A stretch of 40,726 nt of DNA from a virus: the UHGV virus genome UHGV-0389734, one strand, 5' to 3'. Made by a program: the position numbers and the translations under genes. Below are positions 4,901 through 35,135 of this stretch, one piece after another (the first letter of the stretch is position 1; each line of letters opens with the position of its first letter). The notes under the pieces are model-generated. The model worked only from the letters and a program-made list of their open reading frames with translations. It made no database searches and was not told the DNA's origin.

Positions 4901-5627
4901 TTACTGTTTCGGTCAGACCATCCATTGCCTGATCTACAGTCTTGTACTCTGTAGCAAGCTTCGTAAACGCGTCATTTGTGCCGACTTTTGCGATAGCATC
5001 AAAGAAATCTTCTGTCGCGATTTTTCCGTCCTGCACATTCTGCACCAGCTCCGTGGTAGTCATGCCCATTTCTTTTGCGACTGCCGATATACCTGCCGGA
5101 GTCTGCTCAATCATGAGTTTAAAGTCCGCCCAAGCAACCGTTGGTTTCGCTGCCATCTGTGTAGCCTGCTGGCTTAAAGTCTTCATTGCCTGTTTTGGAT
5201 TCTCAGCTGCCGCCGCAAGCCCTCCGAATCCCTTTACAAGCTTGTTCGTGCTTTTAATACCTACTGCACTCAACTGCGCATAAGTACTCGCCATATCAGA
5301 TGCGCTGTAAATAGTATCTTCTGCAAACTCTTGCAATTCCTTTTTTACAGATGCAATCTCGTCAGCGCCTTTGCCAACTATCGACATGTTTCCGTTAAAT
5401 GTTTTCCATGCAGCACTGGAAGAATTTAATTCCGACACCATACCGCCAATACTGGATGTGACAGCACCAAATGCCTTTTGTCCAATTCCGGCCATGATTC
5501 CAAATCCGATTCCACTTGTGAGCGTGTTTTTTAAATTGCTTACGGTACCCATTGCAGATTTGAAAGCAGACGTAAATCCTCTATCCTGCGCAGATAATAT
5601 TGCCTTTACGGAAAAACTTTCTGCCAT
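1950..5627 (-). CDS. tail tape measure protein, 1225 aa
   Basis: Very long ORF with an Ala/Gly/Leu-rich multi-transmembrane central region and a charged helical N-terminal part. Lies between the tail chaperone ORFs and Dit. Confidence 0.85.
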   Translation of the reverse strand: MAESFSVKAILSAQDRGFTSAFKSAMGTVSNLKNTLTSGIGFGIMAGIGQKAFGAVTSSIGGMVSELNSSSAAWKTFNGNMSIVGKGADEIASVKKELQEFAEDTIYSASDMASTYAQLSAVGIKSTNKLVKGFGGLAAAAENPKQAMKTLSQQATQMAAKPTVAWADFKLMIEQTPAGISAVAKEMGMTTTELVQNVQDGKIATEDFFDAIAKVGTNDAFTKLATEYKTVDQAMDGLTETVSNKLAPSFDVLSGRAIKSLDGIINKIGDLDGDAIAGKLTGFLDKASGYWNVLKTEALEVKTAFGDAFSAIGEDLGKITGAFGSTESISSFSSAMDSASGALKSFAGFLEEHSEIIAKVISNLPQLFVAYKGFKIAKSVAPFVGAFTSAIAGLAGAGISTIAGKLFGISKGQEAVGKSSATSSKKMLASAKAFMMLGAGVALISGGFFLLAQGAKAVADSGPLAVGVLAGLVVVVAGLGLGMMKMLSTMSGGTKKLAAMSKAMIAFGVSLLMVSAAFYVLSSAAINLASAGPLAIGVMVGMVAAIAGLMIVAKMVGSALTAGAVGLLAFGAAVLVAAAGMMLLTTASISLANAGPLAVGVMFGLIVAIGALMVVAAAVGPALTAASIGLVAFGAAALLVGVGALLAGAALAVVAAVLPIVTAYGTEGATAILQLSLAMMAFAAGATLAGAGSIILGAGLMVVGAGLALVSASLLVVAAGVLIIGAGMMLLGTGALLAAEGLMKLASCLPMLAANALENAISLVALASSLAVFGSVAMIAGVGAMILGVSLILVSSGLGLIGAGSVLAYAGLSLLSTLFPVISEHGLQVSVSLLALGASLAVFGAGALVVSAAVVVLGTGLLVASAAVLVLCAGVLVLSVAMMAFSASAIAAVAALSIFVLALPALTSNGSTGASIVLTLGSALLVFSAGALAAGTSCLALTTGLLLFSAAMLAGSAGTLAMAAALLAVNSSMKSIAKNAKTAQKSITSMKDSVSIVNDGLDALGNKAKSAVKSIVSAFDNGAGKARNSGQKLGDSAKEGVQNGLQPTQAVATKTVSAVLSSLASGASGAYSSGYNIGLGFANGMSSTLGYIRSVAAQMAAAADAAVRAKAKIHSPSRVFAGLGVYVGEGFALGIESMSRKVAEATQNIVEIPTLSTDMRMRFSGAGDPELSGDYSYNRNATYTIVVPVEYNGREAARVTAEFTQKDLERRESMKMRLKGERSHV

Positions 5628-6502: not shown

Positions 6503-7030
6503 TTATTCCCCCTCTTTCACGCTGTCCTTAAACACGTAATTCGCGATTTCCTGCTGCTGCGTTGTCACGGTTACATCTCCGCGTTTACCTGATCCGTTGA
6601 TGCCAAAAGTAAGGGATACTTCCACATTCTCATCTGCAGAAGACGTGACCTCAACTTCTGTGAGATATCCTTGGAAATACATTCCCTTAAATTTATTCGG
6701 ACCCGCTTCCGCTGCTTCTTCAAGGTTTACTTCCCAAATTTCAAGAAGTTTATCGGAATCCATAGCATCCTCAAGTTCTGTGATCAATTTATCGCCTTTT
6801 GCCAAAACCGCAGTGGCTGTAATTTCTGTCTCCGCAGCTCCTGGTGTACGGATTGTACCGTCTTTCGTTGCAGTAGAATCTGCATCCTTACTCTTGGTTC
6901 TTCCATTCTCCGTTGTAAACGCAAGATTCTTTGCTGCTTCCTGTTTCGCTTTTTCTGCAAGGCGGTACAAATATACAATTTTCTTGCCGGATACCGCCTC
7001 TGCAAATAACTGTAAACCTGTCTTAAACAT
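6503..7030 (-). CDS. major tail protein (TP901-1-like size, 175 aa) with N-terminal LQLFAE motif
   Basis: Position before the chaperone pair and the size fit. N-terminus MFKTGLQLFAEA shares the LQLFA motif with the scaffold and capsid proteins. Confidence 0.6.
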   Translation of the reverse strand: MFKTGLQLFAEAVSGKKIVYLYRLAEKAKQEAAKNLAFTTENGRTKSKDADSTATKDGTIRTPGAAETEITATAVLAKGDKLITELEDAMDSDKLLEIWEVNLEEAAEAGPNKFKGMYFQGYLTEVEVTSSADENVEVSLTFGINGSGKRGDVTVTTQQQEIANYVFKDSVKEGE

Positions 7031-7044
7031 GCTTTTTCTCCTCT

Positions 7045-7428
7045 CTAACTAAAACTAAATTCTATTTCTAGCAACCCATGTAAAAGAGGCTGCTTTGTTG
7101 TTGTGTCCGGTAAAATTCTTTGATTTACATTCCGGACATCCCATGCAAAATTTTCGGTATGATCCAGTCTTCTGCACACATTTTTAATCGCCAGCAGCAT
7201 TTTTGATACCGTTCCTCTCTGCCTAGGATTGTTGTGCCAGACATGAATTGTCTGATACACATTGCCAAACACAGCTGTTTTATTGGCATCGTCCGTCTGT
7301 TGGCTATCTGCAAGATAAACAAAAGGATACGGCGTACCATCCGGCGGTAAGAAGCCGTCATATACGTCATATCCTAATGCTTTGATCTCTGTAAGTAATT
7401 CTGTAAATAATTCTTGCTGTGGATCCAT
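7045..7428 (-). CDS. head-tail joining / tail completion protein
   Basis: Small ORF in the conserved connector gene block between the head and tail genes. Confidence 0.45.
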   Translation of the reverse strand: MDPQQELFTELLTEIKALGYDVYDGFLPPDGTPYPFVYLADSQQTDDANKTAVFGNVYQTIHVWHNNPRQRGTVSKMLLAIKNVCRRLDHTENFAWDVRNVNQRILPDTTTKQPLLHGLLEIEFSFS

Positions 7429-7431
7429 GTC

Positions 7432-7767
7432 TCACCTCACAAGCTTTTGTAAATCTTTTTCAAACTGCTTCTTCTGCTCCTCAAATGCGGGTTTTAAATA
7501 CGGCTGCGCTTCCATGAATCGTGTTCCGAGTTCCACATATGGAGCATACTCCGCAGTAGGTTCCACAGTCGCAGTCATCCCATTATCTGACAAATCAAGA
7601 CCTATACTCCGCTTCAAAGTCCCGGTATCAACCGGCGCATTTCTCTGTGATTTTGCTTGCATATCAGCTCCGTTTTTTCGGACAACTGTCTTAACTGCAT
7701 TCAGATCCATTCTTTTCTTCAAACCTTTATCCAGCTTTGCGATTCCCTTAAATTTAATTTCTGCCAC
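7432..7767 (-). CDS. HK97 gp10-like head-tail joining protein
   Basis: 111 aa, position in the connector block. N-terminus MAEIKFKGIAKLDKGLKK is typical of the gp10 family. Confidence 0.5.
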   Translation of the reverse strand: MAEIKFKGIAKLDKGLKKRMDLNAVKTVVRKNGADMQAKSQRNAPVDTGTLKRSIGLDLSDNGMTATVEPTAEYAPYVELGTRFMEAQPYLKPAFEEQKKQFEKDLQKLVR

Positions 7768-8068
7768 TTTGCACCTCCGATACTACAAACACATGCTTTG
7801 TCCGCAGTTTTCGTTCAAAATCCACTCTGTATAAGGCGTTTCCTATCCGGATACGATCAAACGGCTTTTTGTAATGCGTCTGCAATTGAATTGTAAGACT
7901 TCCTTGTTTAATGCTGCCATAAATCAGGTTCATCGTTTCTGTTCCGGTATCTGAAACGCTTCCGTACTTCTTCACTTCCGTCACGTGGTCATCTGCGTAA
8001 TCACCAGTATCTGGATTGTACGCTCCATGTTCTACCGTCTGAAAATATACAGCTTTATCATACCTCAT
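7754..8068 (-). CDS. head closure / head-tail adaptor protein
   Basis: 104 aa ORF in the connector block, overlapping its neighbours. Confidence 0.45.
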   Translation of the reverse strand: MRYDKAVYFQTVEHGAYNPDTGDYADDHVTEVKKYGSVSDTGTETMNLIYGSIKQGSLTIQLQTHYKKPFDRIRIGNALYRVDFERKLRTKHVFVVSEVQSGRN

Positions 8069-8391
8069 AGGAATCGCACCCTCCCACGTTTTACCCCGTC
8101 TACAGAGTCAAGATACGCTTGTATTTCGTCCATATAGGCGGAAAAATCATTTTCATTGTACGTAGTACTTTCTCCAGCCACGCTATGTGAGGACATGCCC
8201 TCAGAGCCAATGCGGTTAAACCGGATCACTGCCACATCCGTAACGATATGCTGCATACTCGATGGCACTTCCATGCCACCAAGAAGCAGTTTCAAACGAT
8301 TTCGCACAGATTCCAGAATCAGTAAAAGCTTTTCATCGGAATCCCTATCGGAAACGTCAATTCCCAGAAGAATTTTTAAATCATCCAACAT
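8065..8391 (-). CDS. gp6-like head-tail connector protein
   Basis: 108 aa. N-terminus MLDDLKILLGIDVSDRDSDEKLLLILESV resembles the phage gp6-like connector family. Confidence 0.55.
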   Translation of the reverse strand: MLDDLKILLGIDVSDRDSDEKLLLILESVRNRLKLLLGGMEVPSSMQHIVTDVAVIRFNRIGSEGMSSHSVAGESTTYNENDFSAYMDEIQAYLDSVDGVKRGRVRFL

Positions 8392-15969: not shown

Positions 15970-16710
15970 TTACTTTCTTACAGGTATTTCTGAATATACG
16001 ACTATAGTTTCATTTAACCCATAAACTTTTATTGTTTCTTTTATCAAATTCGCAAACCATCCTCCTGCAAACGGGCTAACATACACTGATTCTATAAGTT
16101 CGTTTAAATCGATGCTCACATTTTTTCCAGGCTCTTCACCTGAAAATTCTAGAAATAAAGCTCTAATTTCTTCTTCATAGCTATACGGCTTTATTTTGTA
16201 TACCTCCCTAATAGGGGTTTGCACTTCACAATCCTGGAATTTGTATCCAACTTTTGGAAATGTAACTTCAGTATTTTTGTTTTCAAACGAATCCATATAT
16301 TGCATTGCATATACGTTTATTTTTTTATCGTTTAATGCTTTTTTCAACTTTCCAACTGTTGTTTTTATTGCTACTCCTGATTCTTCATCTGTGTAAATTT
16401 TCCACAAAGCATACGATTCTTGACCGTTAAATTTATTCCAACAATTAGCATACACATTCCTAACAGAATTCAAATGAGACTGGATACCTTTATACCCTTC
16501 TTCAAAGTTTTTATCCCAACCTTTGAAAAAGCCTGCTGGTATTTCTCCTTCATGCGCATCTTCAAAGATTTTTACATTTGTAAAGAAAAGCTTCTTAAAT
16601 ACTAAAAGGCTCATAAATTTACTTAAACTCATATACCTTATAATTTCTTCATCATCGCCCACAGAAAATTTTGCTTCAGTTTCTGACATATCGCCTATAG
16701 TTCTAACCAT
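15970..16710 (-). CDS. DUF2971-like protein, 246 aa (accessory gene)
   Basis: N-terminal IIRYMSLSKFMSLLVFKKLFFTNVKIFEDAHEGE matches the DUF2971 N-terminal pattern. The region is visibly AT-rich compared with its neighbours. Confidence 0.45.
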   Translation of the reverse strand: MVRTIGDMSETEAKFSVGDDEEIIRYMSLSKFMSLLVFKKLFFTNVKIFEDAHEGEIPAGFFKGWDKNFEEGYKGIQSHLNSVRNVYANCWNKFNGQESYALWKIYTDEESGVAIKTTVGKLKKALNDKKINVYAMQYMDSFENKNTEVTFPKVGYKFQDCEVQTPIREVYKIKPYSYEEEIRALFLEFSGEEPGKNVSIDLNELIESVYVSPFAGGWFANLIKETIKVYGLNETIVVYSEIPVRK

Positions 16711-16855
16711 TTCTTTTCCCCATTCATTTGCTTTCCTTTTATTCTACTCCTAAAATAATCAGTATTCAACACATCTTTTAGTACTGCTGCTCGAAATAAT
16801 GGCAACCATATTCATTAACTATATTTCTGAAATACACTGCTCGAACATTTTCTTT

Positions 16856-17637
16856 CTATACTCCTAAAAAGAATTTAAGGAATCTATTTCCATATGGTGT
16901 TATTTTATACCTTTCCCCCCTCGTAATCTTTTTCAATGTCTTTAGTTTAGGATTTTTCTTTCCTTTGGAAAGGTCTTCAATATAACTAGTTATATTACTA
17001 AGATTTTCATTCATGTATTCTTCGTTTCTATTTTGTAAAAGCCCTAGTCGCTCCAGCTTCTCTCTGATTAGACTCGCTTGTGAATCATCTATTTCATGTT
17101 CTCTCATTAAACGATATATATCATCATTTTTTTCTTCATCGACATATGAAAAACTATACAATTTCAGCATTCTTATATCCACTAAGCTTAACTGATCTAA
17201 TGTTTCATAATACATTAGTACTATATCGTCTTTTCCCGAATAGTTTTCAGCTAAATTCATCAAACCATTTACAATAAAACTTATTTTTTCTTCCTGTTTT
17301 GTATTCTGAACAAAATCTGACACAAGTGGGAAAATTTCAGACTTAAATTTTTCTTTTTCCGCATTTTCTAATTTGTTCAACCTTTCATTAAACTTTTCTT
17401 GTCTCTGGCATATATCGTAAATATATTTTTCCCAGTTACGTTCCCATCTCTTTTGTTGATACGCAACCATAATGCCTCCTATTCTTGGCGATATCGCCCC
17501 TACCGCTCCTCCTATTGCTGCTTCCACAACAGTCCCGCGCACCATCTCTCCTACGAGTGCTGGAGCTGCTTCTTCCACCAAAACTTCTCCTATGTACCCC
17601 TTTGTTGCGCTAATAATATCGTGTATCTTTTCAGCCA
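16856..17637 (-). CDS. hypothetical protein with N-terminal Gly/Ala-rich hydrophobic segment and C-terminal coiled coil (about 260 aa)
   Basis: Likely start is ATG at 17637 (MAEKIHDIIS) with GGAGG 8 nt upstream. The longer track ORF (to 17746) would abut the tRNA. The GEMVRGTVVEAAIGGAVGAISPRIGGIMVAY segment is followed by a Lys/Glu-rich helical region. Confidence 0.45.
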
Positions 17638-17748
17638 TAATTGTTTCCTCCATTTTATTCAGTATACTGGAATAATTATACTGTATAAAATAGGCTATAA
17701 CAACCATGGGAAATCTAATCTCGCTACAAGTATCGAAATTATCCACAA

Positions 17749-21332: not shown

Positions 21333-22217
21333 TCATTCCTCCGCAATAAAGTCTTCTATGCTCATTTGCCCTGGTATGTTTTCGTCTTCCATCCACCAGT
21401 TAAAAACTTCTTCTCCTGTTTTCCACGTATTCTCTTTTCCTCTCCTTGTTCTTTCTTGTAACATTCTTTCAAACGCATGTATGTATAATTTCTTGTATTC
21501 CGGGAAGTCTGCAAATTCTTTGTATCGTTTCTTTCCTGCCATCACGCAACCAATGCACCCCACACGATCATATCCGCACTGGTACAGCTCGCACGTCTCT
21601 ATTTTCTCGGAATTTATATATCCCCAGATATCACTATGCGTCCAATCTATGATAGGATTTACAATCATTTTTTTCTGCTGCATACATAGCTCACTCATCC
21701 GTCTTCGTGCATCGTTATCCTCCATCAGCATTATCTTCGTAAATTTTTCTTTCTCTTTTTGGGTTTGTCCGAGCTTTTCAAACTCTTCCCTTTTCAATCT
21801 GGAAGTACTTTCGTCCCATCTTACTCCGGTTGCGATATACCGGTTTGCACATCCAGTTTCTTTCAGCGTAGAGCAACAATATCTTACCATTCTTGTCGGC
21901 GGCATAAGCTTTTCGGGAATTAAGCTCCACATGCTAATCCGTTTTCCTTTATAGCGTGGTTTTTCTATTTCGCACTTAATTCCATGCAGTTCCAGTTCTC
22001 GGAATACCTCCCGAATATGCCGAACTGTCTGCGGCGCATCTGCCGTTGTATGGCTATTATGTACTTCAAATGGGATTCCGGATCGCTTAAAAATCTCTAA
22101 CATCACATCACTATCTTTTCCTCCGCTATACGTACAAACAAGCGGTCTACCATAGTGATGTAGACTCATTTCACTTGCCATTTTAATTCTTTCGATTGCT
22201 TTTTCCTCTTTATCCAT
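21333..22217 (-). CDS. PP-loop ATP-pyrophosphatase family protein (PAPS reductase-like / DndC-like fold), 294 aa
   Basis: SGGKDS PP-loop motif (VCTYSGGKDSDVMLE) and C-terminal Cys cluster CGYDRVGCIGC. Confidence 0.65.
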   Translation of the reverse strand: MDKEEKAIERIKMASEMSLHHYGRPLVCTYSGGKDSDVMLEIFKRSGIPFEVHNSHTTADAPQTVRHIREVFRELELHGIKCEIEKPRYKGKRISMWSLIPEKLMPPTRMVRYCCSTLKETGCANRYIATGVRWDESTSRLKREEFEKLGQTQKEKEKFTKIMLMEDNDARRRMSELCMQQKKMIVNPIIDWTHSDIWGYINSEKIETCELYQCGYDRVGCIGCVMAGKKRYKEFADFPEYKKLYIHAFERMLQERTRRGKENTWKTGEEVFNWWMEDENIPGQMSIEDFIAEE

Positions 22218-25408: not shown

Positions 25409-26206
25409 CTATACCTCTCCTATCAAATTATCTGGCCAGATTGGTGCTTTTAGTATTTTGGTGTGCTTGCACCAGTCGCAAACTTCACAACGGATTGGAT
25501 CGATTTCTCCATTTTTCAGAGAGAGAATCTTTGACACATTCATCTCCATTCCAGACAAGCAATCATTCATCCATTCCTGCGGGATCTGGATAATCTCGAT
25601 ATCTGGCACTTTCTCCTTGCTGGCTGCTGCAATATAGAACGGCAGTCGCTCCCCTGTATTGATTCTCACGACCTCCTGATAGACAGCAGCCTGTATGTCA
25701 TAGCCCCAAAATCTCACAAAGTCCATCAGCCCCATGTCTTTCGCATAATGCGCTTCTCTAAGGGATTTCATTACTTTCAAATCAACGATACATTTACCGG
25801 GCAAATAGCTATCAAGCTTCACTTTCCATTTCGCTCCAAACAAATCAGCTGTAAAAATTTTCTGCTTCTCTCCACTCATAAACATCATGAATAAAGGGTC
25901 TCTTTCGATTCTATTTATGATTTCTTCTGCTTTTCGGTACTCTGCCTTTAACTCTCCTTTTTTTGTAAATATTTCTGGGTTATGAGCCTTAAACAAATCA
26001 AGCGTTCCCTCGAAATGAGAATCCACATAAGACCCAACCAGAAGTGCTGTTGTTTTCTCCATTTCCCAGTCACCATTCAACTTTGCAAGTGCCTGCTCCT
26101 CGCATCCAACACGCCCAATCGTTCCGCAAAAATCCTTATACTGCGAGACACTGAGATACTCCTGATTCGCTTCTTTACTGTAATAATTTTCCTGTGTTAA
26201 AATCAT
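25409..26206 (-). CDS. YqaJ-like PD-(D/E)XK recombination exonuclease, 265 aa
   Basis: Paired with the RecT gene. DLK..K core and lambda-exonuclease-like length. Confidence 0.6.
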   Translation of the reverse strand: MILTQENYYSKEANQEYLSVSQYKDFCGTIGRVGCEEQALAKLNGDWEMEKTTALLVGSYVDSHFEGTLDLFKAHNPEIFTKKGELKAEYRKAEEIINRIERDPLFMMFMSGEKQKIFTADLFGAKWKVKLDSYLPGKCIVDLKVMKSLREAHYAKDMGLMDFVRFWGYDIQAAVYQEVVRINTGERLPFYIAAASKEKVPDIEIIQIPQEWMNDCLSGMEMNVSKILSLKNGEIDPIRCEVCDWCKHTKILKAPIWPDNLIGEV

Positions 26207-30580: not shown

Positions 30581-30781
30581 CTACTTTAATAATTCATCAA
30601 TAGTGCACCCTAGCACCTTTGCTACTTTGGACAAACTTCTTATTGTTGGACTCACTGTATTCCACTTATAAATACTTCCGGTAGAAACGCCAGCCTGACT
30701 TTCTAATAAATTGATGGAAATTCCTTTTTCTGCCGCTCTCTTAGATACCTTGTCGAAAATATTATTTTCCGTATCAATCAC
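30581..30781 (-). CDS. Cro-like XRE-family HTH regulator, 66 aa (GTG start)
   Basis: HTH ISINLLESQAGVSTGSIYKW. Divergent from the cI-like gene across the operator region. Confidence 0.6.
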   Translation of the reverse strand: MIDTENNIFDKVSKRAAEKGISINLLESQAGVSTGSIYKWNTVSPTIRSLSKVAKVLGCTIDELLK

Positions 30782-30791
30782 TCCTTTCTTT

Positions 30792-30993
30792 TTGATTAAG
30801 TTCTGAAAATATCACAATTTTATATTGACTAAGTTCTGAAAATATTCTATAATCTAGTTGTCAAGCAAAATTACAAAATAAATTCCAGCATTCTTATTAT
30901 CGCAATTTTTTTGCGATTTTTTCAGAACCCTATAATCACATTATACGCGATAATTTCAGAATGTCAAGGACTATTTTGCGATTTTTTCAGAAT
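30792..30993. promoter_or_regulatory. genetic-switch operator array: five palindromic TTC(A/T)GAA cores at 33-bp phasing
   Basis: TTCTGAA at 30801 and 30834; TTCAGAA at 30921, 30954 and 30987. Two 21-bp near-identical repeats at 30792-30812 and 30825-30845, and two 19-bp repeats at 30908-30926 and 30974-30992. Confidence 0.6.
30825..30853 (+). promoter_or_regulatory. sigma70-type promoter (-35 TTGACT, 17-bp spacer, -10 TATAAT) overlapping an operator repeat
   Basis: Perfect consensus hexamers at 30825-30830 and 30848-30853. Confidence 0.5.
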
Positions 30994-31011
30994 TTTGAAA
31001 GGAGTCTACAT

Positions 31012-31434
31012 ATGACACTGAGAGAACGCGTAAAACATCTGTGCAAAGAACATGGAATTTCAATGAATAAATTGGAAAACGAGCTTAATTTTGGAAAAGG
31101 GTACATAAGCAAATTAGGTTCAAGTCAACCAAATGTTAACAAGCTCCAGCAAATCGCTGATTACTTCAGCGTATCGTTGGATTATTTAATGTCTGGAGCA
31201 TCTAATGGTGATAATCCGTCATCACTCACGGTGAAAGATGAGCGCGATATTGCAAAAGATATGGAAAACATCAGAAATAAGTTGAAAAACAATGAAGAAG
31301 GTCCTGCTTCTTATGATGGTCAAGCTATTCCAGAAGAAGATATTGACTTGCTTCTTGGGCAAATCGAGCTGATGATGAGAAGATTAAAACCGATTAACAA
31401 AGAAAAGTACAACCCTAACAAAAATAAAAAGTAG
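31012..31434 (+). CDS. cI-like XRE-family repressor, 140 aa
   Basis: ATG at 31012 with AAAGGAG RBS (the track ORF starts further upstream without an RBS). N-terminal HTH LRERVKHLCKEHGISMNKLENELNFGKGYISKL. Confidence 0.7.
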   Translation: MTLRERVKHLCKEHGISMNKLENELNFGKGYISKLGSSQPNVNKLQQIADYFSVSLDYLMSGASNGDNPSSLTVKDERDIAKDMENIRNKLKNNEEGPASYDGQAIPEEDIDLLLGQIELMMRRLKPINKEKYNPNKNKK

Positions 31435-31878
31435 GTGTATAAATTGAGAACAAACGATATTAAGCGTTTAGTTGAATACTACATAAAGAAATTTAATACA
31501 AGAAATCCTTTTGAACTTGCAAACTGTTTAAATGTCGAAGTTCAATTAGGACCTTTGGGAAGTCGAGCTGGATGCTATATGTTTCTGAAAAATCACAAGT
31601 GCATTTTTCTGAATGAAGATTTGGAAGAACATGAGCTGAATCTTGTAATGGCTCACGAGTTAGCACACTCCATTCTTCACAGAAAAGAAAATTGCTACTT
31701 TATCAGAAACAAGACTCTTCTGTTATCTTCTACCAATGAAATAGAAGCGAATATTTTTGCAGCAGAACTTCTAATACCAGATTCTTTAATCTATGAGAAT
31801 CCGGGCATGACAAAAAGCCAGATTGCAAGGCTGGCCGGATATGATGAAAAGATTATGGATTTTAAAAAATTTAAATGA
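31435..31878 (+). CDS. ImmA/IrrE-family zinc metalloprotease, 147 aa
   Basis: HEXXH motif (AHELAHSILH). Immediately downstream of the repressor, the usual ImmR-ImmA arrangement. Confidence 0.7.
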   Translation: MYKLRTNDIKRLVEYYIKKFNTRNPFELANCLNVEVQLGPLGSRAGCYMFLKNHKCIFLNEDLEEHELNLVMAHELAHSILHRKENCYFIRNKTLLLSSTNEIEANIFAAELLIPDSLIYENPGMTKSQIARLAGYDEKIMDFKKFK

Positions 31879-31939
31879 TATAACCGCTATGGCGTTTATA
31901 TAAACTTAAGTGGTGTGAAGTACAAAAAAGGAGGAAAAT

Positions 31940-32995
31940 ATGGAGTTTATCGAATCTATCAAACAATTTTCGGAACGTGTATCTATGATAAAAGATACTG
32001 TATCCACTGAAGAAGCGACAAAAATGTCTTTAATCGTACCGCTGTTTCAAATACTTGGGTATGATGTATTTAATCCGTTAGAATTTTGTCCGGAATATAT
32101 CGCAGATGTTGGAATTAAAAAAGGGGAAAAGGTCGACTATGCGATTTTGGATAATGGAGAGCCAAGTATTTTAATTGAATGCAAAAGTTGTTCTGAACAG
32201 TTAGATAAACATTCTTCTCAACTTTTCAGATATTTTGGTACATCTCCAGCTAAATTCGGAATTTTAACAAATGGACTGGTATACAGATTTTACACTGACC
32301 TGGAAGAAGCAAACAAGATGGATTTAGTGCCATTTCTTGAAATCAATATGATCAACTTAAAAGATTCTTCTATTAATGAGTTGAGAAAATTCTGCAAAGA
32401 GAATTTTGACAAAGAAAAAATATTCAGCACAGCCGAAGAATTGAAGTATAGCTCTTTGATAAAAGGAGTTTTATCTGCTGAATTTGAAGCACCATCGGAG
32501 GAATTTGTAAGACTTGTGCTTACAAACATATATGACGGACAAAAAAATCAGAGGGTAATCGAAAAATTTACTCCTGTTGTAAAAAGAGCGTTCTCTTCAT
32601 TTGTCAATGAGATTGTCAATAACAAAATATCTTCAGCTCTTACAAAAGACAGCGAGGATGTAAAAAACGAGACTGAAGAACTGCCGGAAGAACCAGTGTC
32701 AAAAATTGTAACTACAGAAGAAGAGATTGAAGCATTTTATATTATAAGGGGAATGCTTGCCGGATCAGTAGATGTTAATGATATTGTTCACAGAGATACA
32801 GAAAGTTATTTCGGCATTTTATATAAAGATAATAATAGAAAGCCTATCTGTAGGATAAATCTCGATAAGAAGAATAAGCAAGTATTCATTCCTGATGAAA
32901 ATAAAAAAATGGAGCGTTTTTACATAGAAACACTAAATGATCTATATAAGTATCGCGATCAGCTGATTGCAGTTGTAAAGCGATATATGGAGTAA
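31940..32995 (+). CDS. standalone HsdR_N-like (type I restriction R-subunit N-terminal PD-(D/E)xK) domain protein, 351 aa
   Basis: ATKMSLIVPLFQILGYDV...KVDYAILDNGEPSILIECKS...GILTNGLVYRFY matches the HsdR_N domain pattern (Asp, Glu-x-Lys, TNG motif). AAGGAGG RBS. Confidence 0.55.
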   Translation: MEFIESIKQFSERVSMIKDTVSTEEATKMSLIVPLFQILGYDVFNPLEFCPEYIADVGIKKGEKVDYAILDNGEPSILIECKSCSEQLDKHSSQLFRYFGTSPAKFGILTNGLVYRFYTDLEEANKMDLVPFLEINMINLKDSSINELRKFCKENFDKEKIFSTAEELKYSSLIKGVLSAEFEAPSEEFVRLVLTNIYDGQKNQRVIEKFTPVVKRAFSSFVNEIVNNKISSALTKDSEDVKNETEELPEEPVSKIVTTEEEIEAFYIIRGMLAGSVDVNDIVHRDTESYFGILYKDNNRKPICRINLDKKNKQVFIPDENKKMERFYIETLNDLYKYRDQLIAVVKRYME

Positions 32996-33044
32996 TATGA
33001 CTGCACTACAAAATAACGAGAAATACAGGAGAAAAGAGGAATTT

Positions 33045-33536
33045 ATGAAAAAGAAAATTGCAACCATGCTGTTGATTGGAACTATGGCGTTGTCCATGAC
33101 AGCGTGTGGCGGAGATAAAGAGCCAGAAAAAGAGAATGCTGCGAAAACAGAGGCTACGGAAAAAGAACCGGAAGTCGAAGTGACATATCAAAGCATTCTC
33201 GATGATTATACAAAGAAGATTGCTGACGCGACTCCGGGACTTGTGGAAGAATATAATAACGAAGCAGCTCCGATTGCCGGAGACTTAAATGCACTTGCTG
33301 AATTATCAAATAGCAAGGTTGAAAAACTGGCCGAGATTTCTAATCAGGGCGTTTCCGAAATGGCTACGCTAATGCAGAAGAATGGGGACGAGTACAGTGT
33401 TTACGAAGAATGGTCATTGAAATTAACTGACGTATACACCCAATACGCAAAGCAGATCACTGACGCATACACTTCTTCCGCTGCCGGCATGAGTACGGAA
33501 GACCTGATGAATTCTCTTGATTCTTTAGGACAATAA
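33045..33536 (+). CDS. lipoprotein (signal peptide plus lipobox), 163 aa
   Basis: ATG at 33045 with AGGAG RBS. MKKKIATMLLIGTMALSMTAC-GG is a signal peptide ending in a lipobox-like Cys. The mature part is acidic and helical. Confidence 0.55.
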   Translation: MKKKIATMLLIGTMALSMTACGGDKEPEKENAAKTEATEKEPEVEVTYQSILDDYTKKIADATPGLVEEYNNEAAPIAGDLNALAELSNSKVEKLAEISNQGVSEMATLMQKNGDEYSVYEEWSLKLTDVYTQYAKQITDAYTSSAAGMSTEDLMNSLDSLGQ

Positions 33537-33698
33537 AATACCGCCCCAGTGCTACCAACACTGAGACGGTCCACATACCCGAAGATATGCAATCTGAAGC
33601 CAAGAATATTGTATCATCTTCGGAGCAGCTACACAATCCAGAACATTCGTTCATGTGCTGGCTGTTATTTTTATACTAAAATTTAAGGAGATGATGAT

Positions 33699-34853
33699 AT
33701 GGCCAAAAGAAAAAAGCATCCTCGTTTGCCCAATGGTTACGGTCAGATACGCTTCCTTGGTAAGAATCGCCGCAATCCTTACGGCGTTTACCCGCCAGCT
33801 AAAGAAGAATACGAAAACGGGCAAATGAAGCCACAGAAAGCAATATGCTATGTTTCTGACTGGATGATCGGCTTTGCAGTTCTTACAGCATACAAAGCCG
33901 GCACCTATACTCCCGGCATGGAAAATGATATCCAGGTGGATGACAAAAAGAATGCGGAGGATTTTATCCAGTCTCTGCTTGCAAATTATAATCAGGTGCA
34001 AGGAATTAAAGCAAAGGAAGAGCCGCAATTAACATTTGCGGAAGTATTTCGTAAATTCAACGTCAAGAAGTTTGGACATGAATACGATGCAAAAAAAGTA
34101 AAACGTACCAGCTTGGAATATACGCTACGCGCAGGATTCAAGAACTCTGCTGCCCTACACAACAGAATTTTCGCAGAGCTTGTTACAGACGATCTGCAGG
34201 AAGTAATGGACGCTTGTCCACTCAGACACGCCAGTATAGAACACATCAAAAATCTATACTACCACATGTACAAGTATGCTATGGCAAATAACCTGTGTAC
34301 AAAAGATTATTCGTCCTATGTCGAAATCACGCAAGATGATGATGATGAACACGGAATTCCATTTACTGATGAAGATTTGAAGAAATTGTGGGAAACAAAA
34401 GAAAATGAAGCGTCTGAGATGATCTTGATCATGTGCTACTCCGGCTTTCGGATATCGGAATATAAGACTTTAGAAGTGAATTTGAAAGAACGTTATTTTT
34501 TCGGTGGAATAAAAACAGATGCTGGGAAAAATAGAACCGTTCCTATTTATTCGGGTATTTTTGACCTTGTGAAACACCGGATGAAAACACATGGAGCGCT
34601 CCTGCCTGACAAAATCGATATATTCCGGGACAAGATGTATACTCAACTGTCCACACTTGGAATTGAAAAGCATACTCCGCATGATTGCCGGCACACATTT
34701 TCAAAATTGTGCGAAAAATATAAAGTCGCGGAGAATGATCGAAAAAGAATGCTTGGACATAAGATAGGTGATATCACGAATGACACCTATGGCCACCGAA
34801 CACTGGAAGATTTAAGAAAAGAGATTGAAAAAATAGAAATGGATTTGTTGTAA
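33699..34853 (+). CDS. int: tyrosine site-specific integrase, 384 aa
   Basis: AAGGAG RBS. C-terminal catalytic HDCRHTFSKL ... LGH ... Y signature. Confidence 0.8.
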   Translation: MAKRKKHPRLPNGYGQIRFLGKNRRNPYGVYPPAKEEYENGQMKPQKAICYVSDWMIGFAVLTAYKAGTYTPGMENDIQVDDKKNAEDFIQSLLANYNQVQGIKAKEEPQLTFAEVFRKFNVKKFGHEYDAKKVKRTSLEYTLRAGFKNSAALHNRIFAELVTDDLQEVMDACPLRHASIEHIKNLYYHMYKYAMANNLCTKDYSSYVEITQDDDDEHGIPFTDEDLKKLWETKENEASEMILIMCYSGFRISEYKTLEVNLKERYFFGGIKTDAGKNRTVPIYSGIFDLVKHRMKTHGALLPDKIDIFRDKMYTQLSTLGIEKHTPHDCRHTFSKLCEKYKVAENDRKRMLGHKIGDITNDTYGHRTLEDLRKEIEKIEMDLL

Positions 34854-35135
34854 GTGTGTTGTAAACGGTTCGATTATTCTACTCAAAAATCATTTCTTTC
34901 AGATTGCATTTTATGCGCCAGAAAGCCCGTGGTTGACACGTTTTTTGAAGTTTTTGTGTCAACCACAGGAATCTTTGAAAATCCTTAAACATTAGGAAAT
35001 CTTAAAGTTTCTGAACGGTTTTACGGGCTTTGTCGGCATTTTTGTTGTAAGTGTGTTGTAAATAGAATGTTTTTATTCAATAAGATTGATACAATATTCA
35101 TCCCCTCAGAGAGCTGATCTCCGAGGGGATTTTTA
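34844..35135. other. attP-like region between the int and endolysin genes
   Basis: Perfect 22-bp direct repeat TTTGTTGTAAGTGTGTTGTAAA at 34844-34865 and 35041-35062. 11-bp inverted repeat GTGGTTGACAC/GTGTCAACCAC at 34929-34939 and 34956-34966. 9-bp inverted repeat AAAGCCCGT/ACGGGCTTT. Confidence 0.5.

Follow-up and report, generated by a model that had tools for sequence, protein, structure and literature searches.

The window analysed here is a stretch of 40,726 nucleotides (UHGV virus genome UHGV-0389734), and positions 31,940 to 33,536 within it hold two adjacent genes, one coding for a 351-amino-acid (aa) protein with an HsdR-type nuclease domain and the other for a secreted lipoprotein. 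An earlier note on the sequence had proposed these as a candidate defence or superinfection-exclusion pair, and both open reading frames (ORFs) were confirmed at their positions on the + strand. They lie in a lysogeny module on the same strand (30.9-34.9 kb of the window), which runs from a cI-like helix-turn-helix (HTH) repressor of 140 aa (31012-31434; Pfam HTH_19/HTH_3; length from the metagenome-contig gene call, the mechanical ORF starting at 30961) and an ImmA/IrrE-type M78 metalloprotease (31435-31878; Pfam Peptidase_M78, E=1.1e-15), which is the anti-repressor protease partner of cI, through the 351-aa ORF (31940-32995) and the 163-aa lipoprotein gene (33045-33536; mechanical ORF 32997-33536) to a tyrosine integrase (33699-34853; Pfam Phage_integrase; 93% nucleotide (nt) identity to phiRgPS_6 gp19). 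The flanking genes had been recognised correctly in the earlier note, but their order was corrected to the cI-like HTH gene followed by ImmA/M78. The window was akin to isolated temperate siphoviruses of Ruminococcus (Mediterraneibacter) gnavus (phiRgPS_6, phiRgIBDN1, and others), with about 92% nt identity over 74% of 28.0-40.7 kb. The exact 351-aa protein was found on at least 24 metagenome contigs, and the module adjoined the host PNPase gene in all three contigs long enough to reveal its integrase side. The strong ribosome-binding site (RBS) predicted for the nuclease gene was present as a GGAGG at 31930-31934, five nt upstream of the ATG, and no + strand terminator was found between ImmA and the nuclease gene.

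The 351-aa protein matched Pfam HSDR_N (PF04313) over residues 23-125 (E=5.4e-17; 62.7 bits versus a cut-off of 25.1) and also HSDR_N_2 (E=5e-8; 33.4 bits versus 25), in agreement with the N-terminal domain that had been read from the sequence. No other domain was returned by the Pfam scan (ResIII, DEAD, and Helicase_C included), and the family was about 350 aa long throughout, as expected from the claim that helicase and other partner domains are absent. The nuclease domain (residues 1-136; 31940-32347, + strand) carried the motifs D66 (codon at 32135-32137), E80-C81-K82 (E80 at 32177-32179 and K82 at 32183-32185), Q94xxxY98 (codons at 32219-32221 and 32231-32233), and T110-N111-G112. A D...ExK triad together with a QxxxY motif is typical of RecB-family and HsdR nucleases. 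Conservation was followed in two alignments, one of 11 phage proteins (35-55% identity) and one of 133 cluster representatives (39-54% identity). D66, E80, K82, Q94, and Y98 were all invariant among the phage proteins. In the larger alignment D66, K82, Y98, T110, and G112 were invariant, and E24, E25, K28, E80, and Q94 were kept in at least 90% of the representatives. This conservation of the active site, which the earlier note had left to be checked in homologues, argues for a working nuclease. Sequence searches with either the single protein or the 133-sequence profile recovered no relative in the PDB, HsdR included.

The C-terminal part of the protein had been described as having no recognisable family. 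This held for Pfam, but the whole protein matched PHROG 4225 ('endonuclease') from end to end (residues 1-350 versus profile positions 2-355 of 357; E=2.5e-146). Among 1.84 billion cluster representatives, 5,649 matches (50%-identity clusters) were obtained, 1,233 of them at E<1e-30, and nearly all of the latter were 340-390 aa and aligned over their full length. A separate database yielded scores for more than 7,990 homologues, and since homologues were so numerous in both searches the observation goes far beyond chance. The 351-aa protein is an ordinary full-length representative of a very large family that has already been catalogued, with a fixed architecture of nuclease domain, helical spacer, acidic linker, and alpha-beta5-alpha C-terminal domain, instead of the odd stand-alone HsdR_N fragment that it had seemed to be. 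The fixed family length and the absence of motor remnants also ruled out a truncated or pseudogenised hsdR. Databases name such proteins 'type I restriction endonuclease' (NCBI) or, for a 47%-identical relative, 'predicted type IV restriction endonuclease' (JGI). The NCBI name overstates the case, since the family lacks motor and helicase domains as well as hsdM and hsdS partners and is only about 350 aa long.

The family was present in at least 562 species representatives. In Escherichia coli, 190 of 5,426 complete genomes (3.5%) carried a homologue (WP_000061477.1), located in a small islet by hicAB near aldB (2012C-4221 chromosome locus, 6995-8074). The hicA/hicB toxin-antitoxin pair directly adjoined the homologue both in E. 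coli and in a Porphyromonas gingivalis phage (phage locus 3244-5071). Plasmids also carried homologues, including Borrelia/Borreliella plasmids of 21-32 kb. The 21 Borrelia/Borreliella plasmid records aligned at about 31-33% identity over query residues 1-292 only, and were annotated 'type I restriction endonuclease'.

Behind the nuclease domain, AlphaFold2 predicted an all-helical region at residues 142-234 (32363-32641, + strand; helices 142-149, 158-183, 187-194, and 204-234), for which Pfam gave no family match. It led into an acidic, length-variable linker (residues 233-254; 32636-32701, + strand) that was predicted to be disordered (predicted local distance difference test, pLDDT, below 50) and was gapped and variable in the alignments. 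The C-terminal domain (residues 260-350; 32717-32989, + strand) was about 95 aa in size, specific to this family, and accompanied by conserved T259, E262, D286, Y290, and R305. Predicted by itself with 58 diverse sequences, it adopted an alpha-beta5-alpha topology with a pLDDT of 94.6 and a predicted template modelling score (pTM) of 0.86. A Pfam scan of these 58 sequences at E<=1 gave no recurrent match, profile searches of the PDB gave no relative, and the viral structures in BFVD gave no match at E<=0.001. Phage records contained the domain solely inside the 351-aa-protein family and in no other architecture, and it showed none of the known folds that read modified bases (SRA, EVE/PUA, Mrr-N winged helix, DUF3427). 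The domain resembled YdhG-like/frataxin proteins, YjbR (MmcQ/YjbR), and the C-terminal 'double-wing' of phage T4 MotA at fold level only, with 8-10% identity and no profile-level relation, and this likeness speaks neither for homology nor for DNA binding. Of ten exceptionally long relatives, five were fused to a TerD (tellurite/stress-response) domain. TerD was N-terminal in four of them (P0174, P0248, P0253, and P0304) and C-terminal in P0269, in which the match to the window protein stopped at residue 246. These fusions hint that the site behind the helical region may be a swappable position for a sensor or recognition domain.

We further examined where the nuclease gene resides. In nine of ten annotated phages, drawn from four phyla, the homologue was on the repressor strand, directly behind the repressor or the repressor plus an ImmA-type protease, and ahead of the integrase. 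These nine were Streptococcus IPP25, Corynebacterium Juicebox, Fusobacterium FNU_1P, Klebsiella KpF5, Enterococcus EG-TP1, Lacticaseibacillus P7.1, Clostridium CWou-2020a, and phages of Acetoanaerobium and Terrisporobacter. The tenth, a Porphyromonas phage, carried it instead by hicAB and an anti-CRISPR candidate. At 80 genomic loci, a same-strand HTH gene lay within 1.5 kb upstream in 22 and a recombinase within 4 kb downstream in 22, with both at 17, and the loci flanked by repressor and recombinase were almost all from Bacillota. There was no hsdM or hsdS in the module of the window, nor among the gene families most often seen within two genes of the homologue at the 80 loci. No methyltransferase or specificity partner was seen among the neighbours, and a methyltransferase domain occurred in just 2 of 138 downstream neighbours.

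Comparison with the sibling phages indicated that this slot is variable. Homology to phiRgPS_6 ended at 31942 of the window, restarted at 33024 (the RBS and signal peptide of the lipoprotein), and did so again from 33532. The nuclease gene is an insertion relative to phiRgPS_6, because homology breaks off at 31942 and resumes at 33024. In phiRgPS_6 the order was cI, ImmA, lipoprotein gp20, and integrase, and the nuclease gene was absent. The cargo of the slot differs among sibling R. gnavus phages, with an Ltp-domain exclusion lipoprotein in phiRgIBDN1 (gp21), a DUF5067 lipoprotein in phiRgPS_6 (gp20), and a DUF4429-SHOCT protein in phiRg519T2 (gp22) (PMC10072058). The match of phiRgIBDN1 gp21 to the Ltp domain PF07553 was confirmed (E=9.6e-51). 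The earlier suggestion that host-protective cargo is kept at this position was borne out by this true Ltp-domain lipoprotein and by the post-repressor placement of the nuclease family in phages of four phyla.

The second gene almost certainly starts at the ATG at 33045, from which the gene calls on metagenome contigs gave the 163-aa product. By inspection of the sequence, its leader (MKKKIATMLLIGTMALSMTA followed by C) is a standard Gram-positive lipoprotein leader, with a signal peptide at residues 1-20, the lipobox M-T-A-C at 33096-33107, and residue 21 as the lipidated Cys. Both signal peptide and lipobox were thus as predicted, and the lipobox was kept in the homologues (ITAC, LSAC, or LTAC), all of which started with MKKK. 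The mature part contained a conserved helical domain of about 100 aa (approximately residues 48-147; 33186-33485), for which there was no Pfam family, and PHROG 8545 ('Sie-like') gave a weak, near-full-length match to the lipoprotein (E=1.3e-4). The family was small, with about 150 proteins. The mature domain recurred in a Dorea phage lipoprotein, in a lipoprotein with a LysM tail from Enterococcus phage SEsuP-1, and in a membrane-anchored Lactococcus phage protein. The genes for all three lie between repressor and integrase. The window protein itself had no PF07553 match. An Ltp homologue was ruled out on this ground. The first 40 or so residues were common to phiRgPS_6 gp20, whereas the mature domains of the two proteins were unrelated, which indicates that domains have been swapped behind a shared export leader in this phage group. 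The stretch 33024-33166, comprising the RBS and the signal-peptide and linker part, was 81% identical at the nt level to 5375-5518 of the phiRgPS_6 locus.

The gap between the nuclease gene and the true lipoprotein start was 49 nt, and we asked if the two genes belong together. Lipoprotein homologues at 91% and 60% identity were found between repressor and recombinase without an HsdR_N gene, and the Dorea, Enterococcus, and Lactococcus phages with the lipoprotein domain had no HsdR_N neighbour. Conversely, an 83%-identical nuclease (131 blocks of the contig collection) was followed by a bPH_1 protein in place of the lipoprotein, and the ten annotated phages had no downstream gene of the nuclease in common. 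With each gene occurring without the other, an obligate pair was rejected, and the nuclease and the lipoprotein are two independent cargo genes.

Other features of the module concern its control and its integration. A cro-like HTH gene (30581-30781, - strand) diverges from the cI-like gene, and a gene for an AntA antirepressor (Pfam) also lies on the strand opposite to the lysogeny module. Consensus matches and repeats marked the region between the cro-like and cI-like genes (30785-30995) as the putative genetic switch. It contained the operator-like repeats TTTTGCGATTTTTTCAGAA (twice) and AAGTTCTGAAAATAT (twice, in inverted orientation), along with two near-consensus promoters (+ strand, 30825-30853; - strand, 30967-30940). 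Five operator-like copies of TTCTGAAAA/TTTTCAGAA were counted in this intergenic region, two of which were 19-nt perfect repeats. These elements may act as the lysogenic promoter and its operators. The two transcripts would overlap, because the promoters are face to face and not back to back. A G+C-rich stem-loop of 14 bp (33540-33570) followed the lipoprotein gene, and it is not a canonical + strand terminator because the T-run is on the - strand only. A perfect 22-nt direct repeat, TTTGTTGTAAGTGTGTTGTAAA, was located at 34844-34865, overlapping the integrase stop codon, and at 35041-35062, which is 197 nt downstream and before the endolysin gene. Both copies were also found in phiRgPS_6, and they are candidates for the attP core or for integrase arm sites.

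Elsewhere in the window, a 246-aa DUF2971 protein (15970-16710, - strand) matched the PADLOC candidate single-gene defence system PDC-S31 (E=9.4e-23). Its gene was where the GC content of the window is lowest (0.316 at 16-17 kb), and the gene after it (16856-17746, - strand) gave a weak Abi_alpha match below the cut-off (E=2e-4). The region 15970-17746 looks like a candidate second defence moron region of the same phage. A protein with a PAPS-reductase domain (21333-22217, - strand; Pfam E=1.8e-22) resembled BrxP/DndC (PADLOC E=9e-20) and may serve the phage in DNA modification or anti-restriction, which would become relevant if the nuclease reads DNA modification.

Together, these results make it on balance probable that the R. 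gnavus temperate phage carries two independent protective morons, an active, solitary, restriction-like PD-(D/E)xK nuclease and a superinfection-exclusion lipoprotein. Both would be lysogenic-conversion genes in the variable slot that the repressor/ImmA pair and the integrase enclose, and are probably co-transcribed with the repressor in lysogens. The N-terminal domain of the 351-aa protein would cut DNA, tethered by the helical spacer and the flexible acidic linker to the C-terminal domain, which may supply the choice of target by binding DNA or by sensing a feature of the invader. As there is no methyltransferase partner, methyltransferase-independent action is proposed, whereby a restriction-like guard would attack incoming foreign (phage) DNA and so protect the lysogen. 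The lipoprotein, anchored at the surface, would act through its helical domain outside the membrane, and by analogy with the Ltp-domain protein in the same slot of a sibling phage it is most likely a superinfection-exclusion factor. Judged by position, a protective role is the most likely one for both genes, and for the nuclease a role in defence is well motivated. Expression in lysogens, nuclease activity, recognition by the C-terminal domain, and the protective phenotype are what we infer.

Several points weigh against this reading. How a solitary nuclease would spare the DNA of host and prophage has no explanation yet, and this is the main gap. Transcription in lysogens was deduced from the layout only, and the arrangement of the domains in the model of the 351-aa protein was uncertain (pTM 0.51). 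The searchable literature yielded no experimental report on the function of any family member. Catalogue-level mentions were all that was found there, with no functional study on HsdR_N proteins of prophages and their repressors, on stand-alone or prophage-encoded nucleases, on COG4748, HSDR_N, PF04313, and DUF450, in the recent large defence-discovery papers, or on the TerD links. PADLOC-DB 2.0 was without the family, giving only the weak match of type IIG models to the nuclease part. The survey of homologues for defence islands, which the earlier note had suggested, was mixed. Non-prophage copies had scattered defence-gene neighbours (SoFic, mREase_IV methyl-directed endonucleases, PbeA, PD-Lambda-3, and mad), a count made without a matched control and suggestive only, but there was no dominant defence neighbour, and most Bacteroidota copies were in ordinary-looking chromosomal surroundings with no prophage markers.

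A wider reading is tentative, and we hold it with decidedly less confidence. The 351-aa protein might be an immune nuclease against phages that acts as a single gene, has so far escaped recognition, occurs across most bacterial phyla, and is hard-wired to the repressor operon in temperate phages of at least four phyla, with the alpha-beta5-alpha domain (which in some relatives is joined by TerD or exchanged for it) as a new invader sensor or reader of a DNA feature, mechanistically distinct from type I-IV restriction.

Alternatively, the protein could be an abortive-infection or toxin-type nuclease, inactive until a phage cue is sensed through the C-terminal domain (or through TerD in the fused relatives), whereupon indiscriminate DNA degradation would kill or arrest the infected lysogen instead of restricting the invader selectively. 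This would fit the lack of a methyltransferase and of any recognisable sequence- or modification-reading domain, as well as the stress-response TerD fusions in five of the ten long relatives, including P0269, in which TerD is C-terminal and the match to the window protein stops at residue 246. The hicAB toxin-antitoxin neighbours in E. coli and in a Porphyromonas phage point the same way, and lambda rexAB and BstA are prophage abortive systems that likewise sit downstream of repressors. However, no antitoxin-like or inhibitor partner was conserved beside the nuclease gene, and such an enzyme is computationally indistinguishable from one of direct restriction. We regard this alternative as rather unlikely.

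It is improbable that the nuclease serves the biology of the phage itself, in recombination or repair, in DNA processing at induction or excision, or in early degradation of host or competitor DNA. Its gene is within the regulatory and integration module, by ImmA and the integrase. However, it is on the lysogenic strand and not in the early operon of the lytic strand, and it is dispensable, in that the close relative phiRgPS_6 forms lysogens without it (PMC10072058). A role in the biology of the phage is less likely because relatives do without the gene, because the early region already has a separate PDDEXK recombination nuclease (DUF3799, 25409-26206), and because the family thrives outside prophages, on chromosomes and plasmids.

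A single two-gene system for defence or exclusion, made up of the nuclease and the lipoprotein, is very doubtful. The genes are adjacent on the same strand and occur together on every contig with the exact nuclease sequence, but lipoprotein relatives in the same slot and in the Dorea, Enterococcus, and Lactococcus phages do without the nuclease, each of the ten phages has a different gene downstream of it (as does the 83%-identical relative, with bPH_1), and one product would be cytoplasmic and the other exported. Least probable of all is a catalytically irrelevant HsdR_N-like decoy or regulator, for instance one that interferes with host type I complexes or only binds DNA, because although nothing beyond the nuclease domain is in common with HsdR and the motor is absent, the near invariance of D, ExK, and QxxxY over 133 members argues for selection on catalysis, and in EcoR124I it is not the nuclease domain that contacts the methylase.

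If the nuclease does protect lysogens, a family of thousands would gain a defence function in place of the labels 'type I restriction endonuclease' and 'hypothetical', and this in gut commensals, oral pathogens, streptococci, enterococci, and 3.5% of complete E. coli genomes. It would be a function overlooked by current finders such as PADLOC, and it would help to explain the limits of host range among gut phages, including the R. gnavus phages considered for microbiome engineering. The mechanistic question posed is how an HsdR-type cutter tethered to a small domain, with no methylase, would discriminate self from non-self, and the native E. coli homologue opens this question to direct tests. 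With the lipoprotein, the candidate exclusion factors gain one more un-annotated surface domain. Although the family itself is already catalogued, the recurrent repressor-proximal placement, the unannotated C-terminal domain, and the E. coli homologue make the nuclease a good experimental target.

Among the closest known systems is HsdR of type I restriction (N-terminal endonuclease domain, HSDR_N; 3h1t, and 2w00 for EcoR124I), with which the 351-aa protein shares the D...ExK catalytic motif and the RecB-type QxxxY. Its spacing (D-14-E-x-K-12-Q) presumably matches D151/E165/K167/Q179/Y183 of EcoR124I. HsdR, however, is a protein of about 1,000 aa that works with hsdM and hsdS and possesses superfamily 2 (SF2) translocase/helicase domains and a C-terminal HsdM-contact domain, whereas the family of the 351-aa protein has neither these domains nor hsdM or hsdS nearby at a length of about 350 aa. 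The single-chain restriction-modification enzymes of type IIG/IIL (BpuSI 3s1s, DrdV 7lo5) follow the same plan, in which an N-terminal module cleaves and a distinct module tethered to it recognises the target, and the PADLOC REase_MTase_IIG models matched the nuclease part of the window protein weakly (E=0.0037; E. coli homologue, E=2.7e-7). Unlike these enzymes, the 351-aa protein is without methyltransferase or target-recognition domains, and the module tethered to its nuclease is the 95-aa alpha-beta5-alpha domain. Mrr, a solitary restriction endonuclease, and the other type IV-like enzymes likewise consist of a nuclease without a cognate methylase, but no domain of a known modified-base-reading type was seen in the 351-aa protein. 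Lambda RexAB and BstA are products of prophage defence genes downstream of the repressor, and while they bear no sequence relation to the 351-aa protein, they occupy the same repressor-proximal position, here presumed to be expressed in the lysogen. The lipoprotein of the window lacks the PF07553 repeat domain of Ltp from Streptococcus thermophilus phage TP-J34 and has a different, un-annotated helical domain as its mature part. Nevertheless, Ltp too is a prophage lipoprotein that has a signal peptide and a lipobox, and its gene likewise lies between repressor and integrase. An Ltp-domain protein occupies the same slot in phiRgIBDN1 (PMC10072058), and the function of Ltp in superinfection exclusion has been summarised (PMC11514479).

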